Made by a program: the position numbers and the translations under genes
Notes under the pieces: generated by a model
Database searches by the model: none
The model's input: only the letters and a program-made list of their open reading frames with translations
What the model was told of the DNA's origin: nothing
Shown here: piece by piece, positions 3,516 through 42,913 of the stretch
Position numbering within the stretch: the first letter of the stretch is position 1
Layout: each line of letters starts with the position of its first letter
Assembly (NCBI GenBank): GCA_041576975.1
Contig: JBFGJY010000002.1
Span: 32,187 to 96,186, forward strand
Source of the DNA: Gammaproteobacteria bacterium
GTDB lineage: Bacteria; Pseudomonadota; Gammaproteobacteria; UBA4575
Direction of reading: 5' to 3'
DNA: 64,000 nucleotides

Positions 3516-4430
3516 TTAGCTTCTTTTTTCCTGTTTCGACCAAATCGCCGCTAATAAAGATCCTGATAGATTATGCCATATTGAAAAAACTGCACCAGGT
3601 AAAGCAGCAATAGGTTTGAAATATTCTGTGGCCAGTGCGACGGCTAAGCCAGAGTTTTGCATACCCACTTCAATTGCGATGGTTTTTCGTATTTTTTCAT
3701 TGTAGCCAAGCCAATAACTAAAAATATAGCCTATTACTAACCCCATTAAATTATGCAGAATAACTGCAATCATGACTATACTGACAATAGCATGAAGTTT
3801 TGGCTGATTGTTGGCAATAATTATAGCAATTATTATACATATGGCTAATACCGAGATACTAGGAAAAATGCGAATAATTAGTGCAAGTCGCTGACCAAAT
3901 GAATAATTAATTAATACTCCTAAACTCACAGGAAGCACAATAACTTTGAGCACTGTAGACATCATATTAAAGACAGGGACATCAATACTGTGGCCAAGGT
4001 AAATCCAAGTCAGTATAGGCGTGGCAACTACTGCTAATAATGTAGAGATACTTGTAAGCGCAATGGAAAGTGCGACATTACCGCGCGCTAAATAACAAAT
4101 TACATTAGATGCTGTACCTCCAGGACATGCACCTACAAGAACCATTCCTGTTAGCAACGGGATTGAAAGACTAAAAGACTTACTTATCAGCCATGCGACA
4201 AGAGGCATGATCGAATATTGTAAGATTAAACCAACAACAATGATTGATTTTAAATAAATAAGTTGGCTAAAGTCGGCAGGTTTGAGCGTTATTCCCATAC
4301 CCAGCATAACAATAGCTAATAGGTAAATGATGCTAGATTTCAATGAAATAAAAATTTGCGGAGCTAAATAAGCAATAATCGAAAGCAATACTGCCCATAA
4401 TGGGAATAAGAAATTAAAGCGTTCAAGCAT
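3516..4430 (-). CDS. Bile acid:sodium symporter (BASS/SBF) family transporter
   Basis: 304 aa with about 9-10 TM segments and SBF-like core repeats (GxxxGxxxP-rich helices). Confidence 0.7.
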   Translation of the reverse strand: MLERFNFLFPLWAVLLSIIAYLAPQIFISLKSSIIYLLAIVMLGMGITLKPADFSQLIYLKSIIVVGLILQYSIMPLVAWLISKSFSLSIPLLTGMVLVGACPGGTASNVICYLARGNVALSIALTSISTLLAVVATPILTWIYLGHSIDVPVFNMMSTVLKVIVLPVSLGVLINYSFGQRLALIIRIFPSISVLAICIIIAIIIANNQPKLHAIVSIVMIAVILHNLMGLVIGYIFSYWLGYNEKIRKTIAIEVGMQNSGLAVALATEYFKPIAALPGAVFSIWHNLSGSLLAAIWSKQEKRS

Positions 4431-38692: not shown

Positions 38693-41422
38693 ATGCCTAA
38701 AAAAAATTCACCTCCACTCATTTTGGTCGATGGTTCTTCGTATTTATATCGAGCTTTCCATGTACGAAATTTACAAGAACTTGCTACTTCATCCGGACAA
38801 CCCACGGGTGTGGTATTTGGTGTCGTGAATATGCTCAAAAAGTTGCTCAGCGATGAGGCACCAAGTCATATCGCCGTAGTGTTTGATGCCAAAGGGAAGA
38901 CCTTTAGGCATGAGCTTTACAAAGAGTACAAGGCCAATCGCCCACCCATGCCAGATGAATTGCAGGCACAAATCGAGCCGTTACATAAAATCATTCGTGC
39001 CTTGGGGTTGCCACTTATATCAGAACCGGGAGTTGAGGCGGATGATGTAATCGGAACGTTGGCAAAACAAGCAGTTAAAAAAGGATATGAGGTGTTGGTA
39101 TCTACAAGCGATAAGGATATGGCGCAATTAGTCAATGATCACATTACTTTAGTCAATACCATGACCAATACAACTATGGATGAATCCGGGGTCAATAAGA
39201 AATTCGGCGTCGCACCTTATCAAATTATCGATTATTTAGCGTTGATGGGAGATAAATCAGACAACATCCCTGGAGTGCCTAGTGTAGGACCTAAGACCGC
39301 TGCAAAATGGTTAAATGAATACGGTTCATTAGATGGATTAGTTAAAAATGCAGATGCAATTAGAGGCAAGGTAGGTGAAAAGCTACGCGAGCACCTTGAA
39401 CAATTGCCTCTTGCCTCTGAGCTTACCACCATACGTTGTGATTTAAAACTTGATCACACCATCGATGATTTAAAAATTCTATCATCTGATCCACAGCAAT
39501 TAAAACAACTTTATACTGAGTTGGAATTTAAATCCTGGTTGAAAACACTTGATGTGGAAGAAGTCAAAGAGGAACAGAAAGAGTCTCTTGTAAGCACTAA
39601 TAAGATTGAAAAGAAAAGTAACTACGAAGCCATACTTACTAAAAAAGATTTTAATCGTTGGTTAAAACGGCTTCAGCAAACCGAGTTGGTAGCCTTTGAT
39701 ACCGAAACAGATAGTCTTGATTATATGCAGGCAAATGTTGTGGGGTTGTCATTTGCAGTCACACCAGGTGAAGCTGCGTATGTACCTTTTGCACATTGTT
39801 ATCCTGGTGCCCCAAAGCAATTAGATCGTGCTGAGATACTGGCGAAACTTGAACCAATATTGAATGCAAAACAGGCAAAGATTATTGGGCATAATTTAAA
39901 ATATGATCGCAGTGTCTTGTTAAATCACAATATTCACTTAGATGGCATACAGCATGACACCATGTTGCAATCCTATGTCTGCAACTCAGTAGCGAGTCGG
40001 CACGACCTTGATACCTTGTGTGAAAAATATTTGAACCATACCAATATACATTTTGAAGATGTTGCAGGTAAAGGCGCTAATCAAATTACCTTTGATCAAG
40101 TAGAGTTGGAAAAAGCCGTTGAATACGCTGCCGAAGACGCAGATATGGTGTTACGACTACACCAAATCTTTTGGGCTGAGTTAGAGCAAAAAGCCAAGCA
40201 AAAAGAATTATATTTAAGTATTGAGTTGCCAATGTTGAAAGTGCTTTCGAACATTGAACGCAATGGTGTATTGGTTGATGCCGAGCAATTAGGCAAACAA
40301 AGCAAGCAACTTAGTGAAAGAGTACGGGAGGTAGAAAAACAAGCATTTGAACTTGCCGGTGAGAGTTTTAATTTGGGTTCTCCCAAACAAATACAAGAAA
40401 TTTTATTTGAAAAACAAGGTTTACCAATAATCCGTAAAACACCAAAGGGCCAACCCTCAACCGCCGAAGATGTACTACAGGAATTAGCTGTAGATTACCC
40501 CCTGCCTAAATTGTTACTTGAACATCGCACGCTGAGTAAACTTAAATCAACCTATACGGATAAGCTGCCTACATTAATCAATACCAAAACCAAACGCATA
40601 CATACCTCCTATCATCAAGCGGTTGCTTCCACAGGGCGCTTGTCCTCTTCCGATCCAAATTTGCAAAATATTCCGATTCGCACAGATGAAGGTAGGCGTA
40701 TACGTCAGGCATTTGTTGCGCCAACAGGTTACCAAATACTAGCAGCAGATTATTCTCAAATTGAATTACGCATCATGGCGCACTTATCGCAAGATGAGAG
40801 ACTTTGTGATGCCTTTGCACAAGGTGAGGACATACATCGAGCCACGGCAGCAGAAGTCTTTGCTCTACAACTCGATAAAGTTGAAGCAGAGCAACGCCGT
40901 GCAGCAAAAGCTATAAACTTTGGTTTGATCTATGGCATGTCGGCATTTGGTTTGGCACGCCAGTTGGGGATCACACGTACCGAGGCACAACAGTATGTAA
41001 GTCTATACTTTGAACGCTATCCTGGTGTAAAAAAATATATGGATAGCATACGCGAACAAGCGCGCGCTCAAGGCTATGTCGAAACATTATTTGGTAGACG
41101 ACTTTATTTGCCAGATATTAATGATAAGAATGTACAACGTCGACAATATGCTGAGCGCACTGCGATTAATGCGCCCATGCAAGGTACTGCTGCCGATATT
41201 ATTAAACGCGCCATGATCCAAATAGATGATTGGATACAACCTGAACAACTGGATTGTAAAATGATTATGCAAGTCCATGATGAGCTAGTTTTTGAGGTGC
41301 GCAGTGACAGTGCCGATTTAATTAAGCAAGCGGTTATTCAACGCATGGTAGCCGCTGTAGAGTTGACTGTGCCATTGGTCGTCGATGCAGCGGTTGGCAG
41401 TAACTGGGATGAGGCTCATTAG
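38693..41422 (+). CDS. polA: DNA polymerase I
   Basis: 909 aa. 5'-3' exonuclease N-terminus, a 3'-5' exonuclease domain, Pol A motifs RRAAKAINFGLIYG and QVHDELVFE. Confidence 0.95.
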   Translation: MPKKNSPPLILVDGSSYLYRAFHVRNLQELATSSGQPTGVVFGVVNMLKKLLSDEAPSHIAVVFDAKGKTFRHELYKEYKANRPPMPDELQAQIEPLHKIIRALGLPLISEPGVEADDVIGTLAKQAVKKGYEVLVSTSDKDMAQLVNDHITLVNTMTNTTMDESGVNKKFGVAPYQIIDYLALMGDKSDNIPGVPSVGPKTAAKWLNEYGSLDGLVKNADAIRGKVGEKLREHLEQLPLASELTTIRCDLKLDHTIDDLKILSSDPQQLKQLYTELEFKSWLKTLDVEEVKEEQKESLVSTNKIEKKSNYEAILTKKDFNRWLKRLQQTELVAFDTETDSLDYMQANVVGLSFAVTPGEAAYVPFAHCYPGAPKQLDRAEILAKLEPILNAKQAKIIGHNLKYDRSVLLNHNIHLDGIQHDTMLQSYVCNSVASRHDLDTLCEKYLNHTNIHFEDVAGKGANQITFDQVELEKAVEYAAEDADMVLRLHQIFWAELEQKAKQKELYLSIELPMLKVLSNIERNGVLVDAEQLGKQSKQLSERVREVEKQAFELAGESFNLGSPKQIQEILFEKQGLPIIRKTPKGQPSTAEDVLQELAVDYPLPKLLLEHRTLSKLKSTYTDKLPTLINTKTKRIHTSYHQAVASTGRLSSSDPNLQNIPIRTDEGRRIRQAFVAPTGYQILAADYSQIELRIMAHLSQDERLCDAFAQGEDIHRATAAEVFALQLDKVEAEQRRAAKAINFGLIYGMSAFGLARQLGITRTEAQQYVSLYFERYPGVKKYMDSIREQARAQGYVETLFGRRLYLPDINDKNVQRRQYAERTAINAPMQGTAADIIKRAMIQIDDWIQPEQLDCKMIMQVHDELVFEVRSDSADLIKQAVIQRMVAAVELTVPLVVDAAVGSNWDEAH

Positions 41423-41650: not shown

Positions 41651-41732
41651 CCTCATGCGCATGAGGTAGTTGCATAAATATAATTGTTTATTGAGTTGGA
41701 ACATACAAGTTGGGCACATCTTGGACGTGCCC
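41651..41732. promoter_or_regulatory. Two inverted repeats upstream of a secreted-protein gene (candidate operator sites)
   Basis: Perfect 16-bp palindrome CCTCATGCGCATGAGG at 41651-41666, plus GGGCAC-N9-GTGCCC at 41712-41732. An AAGGGA ribosome-binding site and the ATG (41751) follow. Confidence 0.35.
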
Positions 41733-41750
41733 ACGATTTAAGGGATTAAA

Positions 41751-42119
41751 ATGATAAGGAATATCATTAAAGCGGTTCTGTTTTTTGCTGTTGTAGTTTC
41801 TGCGAGCTCAGTTGCACATGTAGCCACAGCATTGGATTTAAGCCTAGAAAACAATTCATCTGACGACCCCTATCACCCATTTGCATGGACACCAGAGACG
41901 GTGCAACAGCCAAGCCGTCAAAATTCTAGATCCATGATAATGCAGCGTAGTAAAGGAAATTCACAAATGTCAGATACCGCACAAAAAAAGTTCTCGCTAA
42001 AAGTATTCCAGGGCGACGGACTAGATGATTTACGTCGAAACCCAGATATCCACAATATGGTTATTTTGCCGGAAGAAGACACGGAAGCTTATGGGATATG
42101 GCTAAAACAGAGATTCTAA
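41751..42119 (+). CDS. Hypothetical secreted protein (122 aa, N-terminal signal peptide)
   Basis: Signal peptide MIRNIIKAVLFFAVVVSASSVAHVA. No recognisable domain. Confidence 0.5.
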   Translation: MIRNIIKAVLFFAVVVSASSVAHVATALDLSLENNSSDDPYHPFAWTPETVQQPSRQNSRSMIMQRSKGNSQMSDTAQKKFSLKVFQGDGLDDLRRNPDIHNMVILPEEDTEAYGIWLKQRF

Positions 42120-42165
42120 GCCTGCATAAAGTTAATTCATTTGAGCGAACTTTCAGGCTTTTTGG
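42119..42165 (+). terminator. Rho-independent terminator of the secreted-protein gene
   Basis: Nested stem agcctg/caggct enclosing aaagtt/aacttt, followed by ttttt. Confidence 0.55.
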
Positions 42166-42290
42166 TCATCTAATTATTAGCGCAACAGCGCTACCCGCTT
42201 CCCTCCCTTAGCGGGCATTTTTAGACTCGGGCTCCCCAACCGAGTCATTCTTAGCCCCGGTTTTTCCCATTTAACCGGGGCGCTTTTTTT
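42166..42290 (+). ncRNA. Candidate small RNA in the polA-engB spacer: three tandem GC-rich hairpins ending in a strong intrinsic terminator
   Basis: Hairpins cccgct/agcggg (+TTTTT), gactcgg/ccgagtc and ccccggtt/aaccgggg (+TTTTTTT). They are terminator-like only on the + strand. Confidence 0.3.
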
Positions 42291-42298
42291 GAACGCAA

Positions 42299-42913
42299 TC
42301 AATCATTCTCAATTAACGCTTCGGTTAGCCATGCAGATATCTTTTCTTGCGCCTGGGCAATACCAATTTGTTTGGTGCCTGAGAATACTTGGACACCACA
42401 ATTGAAGCCCTGTTGCTCTAAACTCGATGTCACTTTAGTTAGAGTCTTCACCATATTGTTTCTATTTACTTTATCGACCTTGGTTAACAAGATATAGAGG
42501 GGCAGCTGATAATGTTCACTCCAGCGAATCATCGTCCAGTCAATTTCTGTGAGTGGATGCCGAATATCCATTAATAAAATCAAACCACATAATGCATGGC
42601 GATGAATCAAATATGTTTCCATTAAGCTCTGCCATTGTTGCTGCACTTTGGCAGGGGCTTTGGCATAGCCATAGCCAGGCAAATCTACGAGGCGAGAGTC
42701 GCCATCAAGCTTAAAAAAATTAATCATCTGTGTGCGTCCTGGTGCCTTGCTGGTGCGCGCGAGATTTTTTTGTCGGCAAAGTGCGTTGATCGCACTTGAT
42801 TTGCCTGAATTTGAACGACCGCAAAAAGCTACTTCAGCACCACTGTCTGTAGGGAAGTCGATTACGGATGCGGCACTTTTTAAAAATCGCGCCTGTGAGA
42901 GTGAGATTTTCAT
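42299..42913 (-). CDS. engB: Ribosome biogenesis GTPase EngB/YihA
   Basis: 204 aa. G1 GRSNSGKSSAIN and a G3 DLPGYG motif. Confidence 0.9.
   Translation of the reverse strand: MKISLSQARFLKSAASVIDFPTDSGAEVAFCGRSNSGKSSAINALCRQKNLARTSKAPGRTQMINFFKLDGDSRLVDLPGYGYAKAPAKVQQQWQSLMETYLIHRHALCGLILLMDIRHPLTEIDWTMIRWSEHYQLPLYILLTKVDKVNRNNMVKTLTKVTSSLEQQGFNCGVQVFSGTKQIGIAQAQEKISAWLTEALIEND

Follow-up and report, generated by a model that had tools for sequence, protein, structure and literature searches.

A candidate sigma-E-type small RNA gene in the polA-engB spacer of an uncultured gammaproteobacterial lineage, related to the anti-hemB family

Background

Is the hairpin-rich spacer between polA and the convergent engB in an uncultured gammaproteobacterial lineage the site of a small RNA (sRNA) gene, and if so, to which family would it belong and what might it do? 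In the annotated record of Escherichia coli K-12, polA is followed by spf and, on the opposite strand, by yihA (engB), and the initial annotation of the 64 kb stretch of DNA analysed here (hereafter the window) was right in assigning the same placement to its spacer. Spot 42, the product of spf, is a regulator of carbon metabolism under repression by cAMP-CRP, and the E. coli gene also encodes the small protein SpfP according to the K-12 record. Another sRNA of this position is the AlgU/sigma-22-dependent ErsA of Pseudomonas aeruginosa, which is encoded in the polA-engB spacer.

Two further sRNAs are of importance for the present analysis. The sX13 RNA of the Xanthomonadaceae is always located downstream of polA, forms three stable stem-loops with apical C-rich motifs and represses, by means of its loops, mRNAs bearing G-rich motifs near the start codon; it is Hfq-independent and constitutive, and no link to engB is reported for it. 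The sX13 paper points out that polA-adjacent sRNAs (Spot 42, alpha-r7, sX13) recur, often with C-rich loops. The ncS04 RNA of Burkholderia cenocepacia, anti-hemB in Rfam, is a transcript of 105 nt identified on Northern blots (PMC5688073), which is encoded between BCAL0264 and BCAL0265 in the orientation <- -> <-, co-purifies with Hfq and has a function that is not known. Its expression was unchanged under the conditions tested, envelope and heat stress not being among those listed, so that this studied relative gives no sign of stress induction.

Methods

The window was searched with Rfam, Pfam and consensus promoter and terminator scans. Close relatives were obtained by a search with EngB, taking one genome per species, which gave 74 loci, the best 20 of the 74 being retained. 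More distant homologues were collected by scanning metagenomes with the sequence pattern of the second hairpin of the RNA (HP2), which gave at least 120 stretches and at least 80 loci. Two covariance models were used, R1 for the clade of the window and R2 for the broad family; the E-values of these home-made models are rough. Distances to engB were counted at 68 loci with a convergent engB (the window, L006-L025 and L080-L159, the metagenome part being among the matches listed).

Results and discussion

Gene order at the locus

The ORF list and Pfam give the order polA (38693-41422, + strand; DNA_pol_A and exonuclease domains), which is the upstream anchor gene, an ORF of 122 amino acids (41751-42119, + strand), the RNA and engB (42299-42913, - strand), which encodes the YihA/YsxC GTPase (Pfam MMR_HSR1) and is the convergent partner of the sRNA. 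A cytochrome c4 gene and a DsbA-like gene lie beyond engB. The spacer from the 122-aa ORF to engB measures 179 nt, and 8 nt separate the 3' end of the sRNA from the engB stop codon. The local G+C content is about 37-48% and the host belongs to an uncultured gammaproteobacterial lineage, the exact EngB protein being found only on short contigs of five MAG assemblies.

Five MAG contigs have the 122-aa ORF annotated as a gene; its N-terminus resembles a signal peptide, and a Pfam search assigned it to no family. Its C-terminal motif EDTEAYG..KQRF is kept in L006, L018-L021, L023 and L024, and the gene is missing from the L007-type lineages. The gap between polA and this ORF carries a perfect 10-bp GC-rich hairpin (TGGGCACATCTTGGACGTGCCCA, 41711-41733), labelled terminator-like on the - strand by the scan; the weak Rfam matches to tp2 and Chlorobi-1 near it are probably due to chance.

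Hairpins and ends of the predicted RNA

The predicted transcript of about 110 nt (42179-42290, + strand), with a start placed 6-8 nt past the -10 box described below and an end at the U-tract, would fold into four hairpins. HP1 is a small 5' hairpin (UAGCGC-AACA-GCGCUA, 42178-42193, + strand). It is followed by HP2 (42194-42215, + strand), with the stem CCCGCU/AGCGGG and the loop UCCCUCCCU(U), which is the presumed seed and a mimic of the anti-Shine-Dalgarno sequence. A single-stranded, A/U-rich linker (CAUUUUUA, 42216-42223, + strand), unpaired in both the minimum-energy and the centroid folds and A/U-rich among the relatives too, may by analogy serve as a contact for Hfq. HP3 (42224-42246, + strand) has the stem GACUCGG/CCGAGUC and the second C-rich loop, GCUCCCCAA. 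HP4 (42254-42290, + strand) is the intrinsic terminator, in which a 9-bp GC-rich stem (GCCCCGGUU/AACCGGGGC, 42254-42281) with a 10-nt loop is followed by U7 at 42284-42290; a simple terminator scan missed it, its loop being longer than 8 nt. The RNA carries the apical C-rich loops UCCCUCCCU, GCUCCCCAA and UUUCCCAUUU with polA upstream, a combination of the sX13 type.

The three GC-rich hairpins reported in the initial annotation are all present as placed there, and the last of them is indeed an intrinsic terminator, its GC-rich stem running into T7 at 42284-42290; the fourth hairpin, the small 5' one at 42178-42193, had been overlooked. Likewise, the sRNA gene ends just before engB as described, but the proposed length of about 125 nt is to be reduced to a predicted 110 nt or so, since the predicted start at about 42179-42181 falls on the first bases of HP1, some 13 nt inside the earlier limit at 42166. 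With the R1 model, 42178-42290 scores 128 bits. The folding energy of the + strand is -49 kcal/mol, with a z-score of -6.35 and none of 200 shuffles equally good, and the z-score of the - strand is -3.6. A 41-aa ORF on the - strand (42177-42302) was rejected as coding, as the loops of HP1, HP3 and HP4 show, in the alignments, indels of lengths not divisible by three.

A sigma-E-type promoter motif

A promoter search around 42166-42190, as advised in the initial annotation, identified a -10 box TCTAA (42169-42173, + strand; invariant C.TCTAA) lying 16 nt past a -35 box GAACTT of the sigma-E (RpoE/AlgU) type (42147-42152, + strand; invariant G.GAACTTT). Promoters of this type have the consensus GGAACTT-N16-TCnnA, to which the motif GAACTT-N16-TCTAA of the window corresponds in both boxes and in the spacing. 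The motif (42147-42173) is invariant in the window and in all the 20 close relatives, with a spacing that is always 16 nt, while the sequence between the boxes and further upstream varies freely; its exact form has a single match in the 64 kb window. The promoter scan used does not model the sigma-E type and hence missed it, and a consensus scan of 42100-42180 detected no sigma-70-like site. We infer from the sequence that RpoE/AlgU, the sigma factor of envelope stress, would use the motif as a promoter. The presence of rpoE and hfq in the host is an assumption here; tblastn with E. coli RpoE and Hfq queries identified no homologue in the 64 kb window.

Among the matches listed, the sigma-E-type motif occurs 20-28 nt before HP2 in 47 of the 59 engB-linked metagenome homologues, as against none of 18 loci of a second subfamily (described below) and 2% of random windows, which amounts to an enrichment of about 40-fold over the background. 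A strict promoter regular expression returned almost nothing on the distant engB loci, for which a looser inspection was required.

The 122-aa ORF is followed by a hairpin with a T-run (42118-42160, + strand; -17.7 kcal/mol, z-score -3.0), left unflagged by the consensus terminator scan, whose 3' arm contains the -35 box GAACTT. The terminator of its own that had been ascribed to this gene (42119-42165) is present as a hairpin with a T-run, but it overlaps a sigma-E-type promoter that had escaped notice. In relatives like L018, a separate hairpin of the ORF with a T-run is located further upstream.

Conservation, covariation and strand

The 20 close relatives, all uncultured Gammaproteobacteria or 'Thiotrichales' MAGs, have EngB proteins 70-82% identical to that of the window. 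Conservation of the spacer in related genomes, which had been named beforehand as a check on the candidate, was clear: 20 of the 20 have related sequence just beyond the stop codon of engB, on the strand opposite to it, and the full four-hairpin RNA is recognised by the covariance model in 18 of the 20, at 99-120 bits. The full RNA lies directly past the stop codon in 17 of these 18 and about 140 nt beyond it in L009. The two other loci carry a three-hairpin variant (L010, 3691-3816, - strand; 41 bits, loop UUCCUCCCU, one hairpin missing, 82 nt from engB) and a promoter GAACTTT...TTCTAA that is kept before a short remnant of the RNA body (ACCUCCUUUAGC; L022, 3580-3700, - strand), which looks like a recent loss of the RNA.

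The stem and the loop core of HP2 are invariant in the window and in the 18 EngB-derived relatives, with one loop base different in L010; HP2 being the search pattern for the metagenome set, its invariance there holds by construction and is independent evidence in the EngB-derived set only. The HP3 loop CUCCCCA is semi-conserved. In a MAFFT alignment of 19 sequences, 92.9% of the helix cells are paired, compared with 25-47% when the partners are slid, and the close clade has six compensatory pairs, four in HP1 and two in HP4. Four of the six HP1 pairs change on both sides in this alignment (GC/AU and CG/UA), the HP3 stem is preserved despite C-to-U changes, which yield G-U pairs, and HP4 shows compensatory changes from G-C to A-U in L023 and L024. 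An alignment of 98 sequences, which was fitted to the model and is thus biased towards the structure, HP2 again being the search pattern for most of its rows, has 96.7% of the cells paired, 21 of 28 pairs compensatory and a covariation score of 0.507 against 0.161 for shuffles. Both sides change at all six pairs of HP1 and double changes occur at seven of seven pairs of HP3 in this larger set, and eight of the nine pairs of HP4 covary.

Cells with G-U exceed those with A-C by 128 to 10, and by 31 to 3 in the close clade, which indicates that the RNA is read from the + strand, the one bearing the T-run. The transcript had been assigned to the polA strand, and both this ratio of 128:10 and the position of U7 on the + strand back that assignment. 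The presence in the polA-engB spacer of a real, separate and conserved sRNA gene on the polA strand is supported by its conserved promoter and position, four compensatory helices, strand-specific G-U excess and intrinsic terminator.

Relation to the anti-hemB family

At the gathering level, Rfam gave no match in the whole window and none in 20 distant engB loci. Below that level, the Infernal/Rfam scan that had been proposed for the candidate gave anti-hemB (RF02837, Burkholderia RNA 7) as the best match of the window RNA, at 38.9 bits against a cut-off of 49.5, with E-values of 3.9e-8 on 161 nt and 4.4e-7 on 1.8 kb and the full model matched (positions 1-81). The first hairpin of the model is nearly identical to HP2 (CCCGCUU..CCUCCCU..AGCGGG). 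Both RNAs also measure about 105-110 nt, are laid out as four hairpins of which the 5' one is small, and end in an intrinsic terminator. They have in common, too, the orientation convergent with engB, which is apparent from the metagenome members that pass the cut-off and from the orientation published for ncS04, and, in most members, a sigma-E-type motif upstream. The window RNA differs in the sequence and the loops of HP3, in its upstream neighbours, which are polA and the 122-aa ORF and not hemB, and in its host, an uncultured gammaproteobacterial lineage and not Burkholderia.

The metagenome homologues connect the two. Among the matches listed, their layout is the same, HP2 and HP3 being flanked by a small hairpin on the 5' side and a terminator on the 3' side. 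A convergent engB follows the HP2 motif at a distance of about 85-330 nt in 56 of the 80 listed loci, with cytochrome c4 beyond engB in most of the 56 and polA detected upstream in 16. The R1 model finds the metagenome loci at 24-71 bits, the Rfam anti-hemB model places 15 of 20 tested loci above its cut-off, and recognition is reciprocal, as R1 scores 24-65 bits on the 15 loci to which Rfam gives 49.5-76.8. The loci that pass in Rfam include some with the polA-sRNA-engB arrangement (L084, L103, L111, L146). At those scoring highest, hemB (ALAD) takes the other side and is divergent from the RNA (hemB <- -> sRNA -> <- engB), an arrangement that agrees with the published orientation of B. cenocepacia ncS04. 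Judged by its Rfam match and by the continuum of metagenome homologues linking both, the window RNA is a divergent, sub-threshold member of the anti-hemB family. The initial annotation had offered the choice between a positional analogue of Spot 42 and a new sRNA; the RNA does occupy the Spot 42/ErsA position, but it is not free of relatives, anti-hemB being one below the threshold. The constant neighbour of the family is apparently engB, not hemB.

A second subfamily (L081, L085, L090, L095, L098, L101, L102, L107, L109, L115, L130, L132, L137, L139, L145, L151) has the same CCUCCCU hairpin followed by GCCUUGAUGUGUGACAGCAA, with engB not nearby and, in most loci, a sigma-70-like promoter upstream (TTGA.../TAAATT or TAGATT). 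Both of its members that were tested, L085 and L107, pass the Rfam anti-hemB cut-off, and the Rfam family seems to lump two groups of different location and regulation. Among the matches listed, L135 alone has the RNA downstream of engB and codirectional with it rather than convergent.

Other known sRNAs

With Spot 42 (spf, RF00021), the window RNA shares an identical arrangement (polA > sRNA > < engB/yihA), a similar size and an intrinsic terminator at the end. The sequences differ, as had been remarked earlier, with a score of 15.4 bits (E 0.8-9) against a cut-off of 80. The best match of R2 in the 5-kb polA-yihA region of E. coli K-12 is nevertheless spf, at 18.3 bits (L200, 3414-3509) with noise at 9-13 bits. 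ErsA, which the window RNA resembles, at the sequence level, in lying in the polA-engB spacer with a sigma-22/sigma-E-type promoter, has no CCUCCCU hairpin and uses a U-rich single-stranded domain for pairing, and the ErsA/Pseudomon-1 model (RF01719) did not match the window RNA at E <= 10 (161 nt). The sX13 RNA (RF02232) is likewise downstream of polA with C-rich apical loops, but its model gives the window RNA 15.5 bits against a cut-off of 50; it is the best-studied example of the C-rich-loop mechanism proposed below.

Further weak Rfam matches were LhrC (21.5 bits), alpha-r14 (20.7 bits) and the Betaproteobacteria toxic sRNA (RF02278; 13.9 bits). These RNAs and 6C resemble the window RNA, at 14-22 bits, in having hairpins with C-rich loops and differ from it in architecture and genomic position, with scores far under the cut-offs; what they share is a design and not a family. 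A Neisseria sigma-E sRNA was rejected as a relative, being a 74-nt RNA between NMB1826 and dnaE with no similarity outside Neisseria.

Proposed function and alternative explanations

The segment 42179-42290 (+ strand) is probably the gene of a trans-acting sRNA of about 110 nt, a divergent anti-hemB member that would be induced by sigma-E and would act by blocking ribosome-binding sites. Upon envelope damage, RpoE/AlgU would read GAACTT-N16-TCTAA and the sRNA would be made. The HP2 loop UCCCUCCCU, mimicking the anti-Shine-Dalgarno sequence of the 16S rRNA, would then pair with G-rich ribosome-binding sites and prevent translation, with the C-rich HP3 loop possibly assisting in the pairing. Hfq may be bound through the 3' U-tract and the A/U linker, in analogy with the co-purification of ncS04, and the targets may be mRNAs of envelope and outer-membrane proteins, as with MicA, RybB, MicL and ErsA. 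Target prediction by duplex folding against the candidate starts in the 64 kb gave no convincing target; such prediction is uninformative here as the CCUCC core fits any strong ribosome-binding site. Unusually G-rich ribosome-binding sites, complementary to the C-rich loops and too weak a ground for calling targets, precede a 243-aa ORF (GAGGGGAG, 24478) and a 415-aa ORF (UAGGAGGGUAA, 51361).

Alternatively, the RNA, being transcribed head-on towards and into the 3' end of engB, might act mainly in cis on this gene, either as a shared or bidirectional terminator or as an antisense RNA to the 3' end of the engB mRNA that tunes this ribosome-assembly GTPase, a trans role being compatible with both. 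Among the matches listed, 59 of the 68 loci have the 3' end of the sRNA no more than 30 nt from the stop codon of engB, and in 42 of the 68 it reaches into the engB coding region, by up to 57 nt; the linkage to engB persists though the other neighbour varies (polA, hemB or another gene), and the - strand provides no T-run terminator for engB itself. An interlock of this kind may be the reason for the lasting association of the sRNA with engB beside a changing neighbour on the other side. An action mainly in cis is nevertheless rather unlikely, as neither the invariant C-rich HP2 loop, about 85 nt from engB, nor a stress-type promoter would be needed for it, and a subfamily with the same HP2 exists away from engB. 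That there is no RNA gene at all, and that the hairpins are merely terminators or REP-like structural repeats, would fit with the common occurrence of GC-rich hairpins between convergent genes and with HP4 abutting engB, yet it is very improbable. With up to three mismatches allowed, the sequences of HP2, HP3 and HP4 still have no second copy in the 64 kb window, so that the REP-repeat objection, raised at the outset as what would refute the candidate, fails; the covariance model of the RNA has one match in the window and one per 6.6-kb locus among the relatives. The conservation of the promoter, that of the loops together with the stems, the covariation of the non-terminator helices and the experimental detection of related RNAs likewise argue against it.

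The regulation is a separate matter. An sRNA with C-rich loops could be constitutive or otherwise regulated, as sX13 is, the motif being read by another sigma factor or not being a promoter. The constitutive expression of sX13, with its three C-rich loops downstream of polA, the unchanged level of ncS04 in the conditions tested and the absence of the sigma-E-type motif from four loci that yet pass the Rfam cut-off (L088, L147, L085, L107) speak for it. It is considered unlikely, since the motif fits the RpoE/AlgU consensus in boxes and spacing, is invariant in the clade and enriched about 40-fold at a fixed distance (among the matches listed), and since the positional analogue ErsA is dependent on sigma-22 by experiment. 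A true Spot 42 orthologue, that is, a CRP-repressed regulator of carbon metabolism, would have the position and orientation of spf in E. coli K-12, and the R2 match to spf at 18.3 bits points the same way. This reading is hardly credible: it is largely refuted by the Rfam score of 15.4 bits against a cut-off of 80, the R2 noise reaches 9-13 bits and the consensus scan found no sigma-70-like promoter. Spot 42, moreover, pairs via single-stranded regions and not C-rich loops.

If the sigma-E-induced, trans-acting sRNA is accepted, a candidate envelope-stress sRNA, with promoter, ends and seed defined, is added to an uncultured marine lineage of the Gammaproteobacteria, and its annotation becomes possible in 20 or more related genomes. 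The anti-hemB family of Rfam would extend far beyond Burkholderia, with engB and not hemB as the common anchor and a sigma-E-type promoter in most of the engB-linked members. An uncharacterised Burkholderia sRNA would thereby be tied to the envelope-stress response, to ErsA and to Spot 42. The main interest lies in the link of the anti-hemB family, engB and a sigma-E-type promoter, which is unreported; within the set of papers searched, none connects anti-hemB to engB, ErsA or sigma-E. The current understanding of sRNA mechanisms is left unaltered, and the locus would provide material for studying how an sRNA gene can hold its position through changes of sequence and regulation.

Possible common origin of the engB-adjacent sRNAs

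Distant engB loci of Pseudomonadales MAGs carry the promoters GGAACTT-N16-TCTGA/TCCTAA followed by two-hairpin RNAs with C-rich loops, downstream of engB and in the same orientation as the window RNA, which give weak ErsA matches (30.7-46 bits, cut-off 50). The R2 model matches these ErsA-like RNAs weakly (E 5e-4 to 0.06). A common ancestry of the anti-hemB family and ErsA (and spf) is suggested at this level of similarity. It is possible, though on the whole doubtful, that the engB-adjacent sRNA slot is one ancient locus of the Beta- and Gammaproteobacteria, the ancestor of which was sigma-E-driven, had C-rich loops and lay tail-to-tail with engB. Its descendants would be anti-hemB, the window RNA, ErsA and perhaps Spot 42 and sX13, and the enterobacteria would have exchanged the sigma-E promoter for CRP control. 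The clade of the window would then be an intermediate, with HP1 and HP2 of the anti-hemB type and an HP3 resembling the first hairpin of the ErsA-like RNAs.

Two tandem ErsA-like RNAs, about 440-730 nt apart, were observed downstream of engB in L055 (about 3560-3700 and 4003-4114), L056, L057 and L061. In L055 and L057, the sequences of which were inspected, a GGAACT-type promoter precedes the engB-proximal copy.
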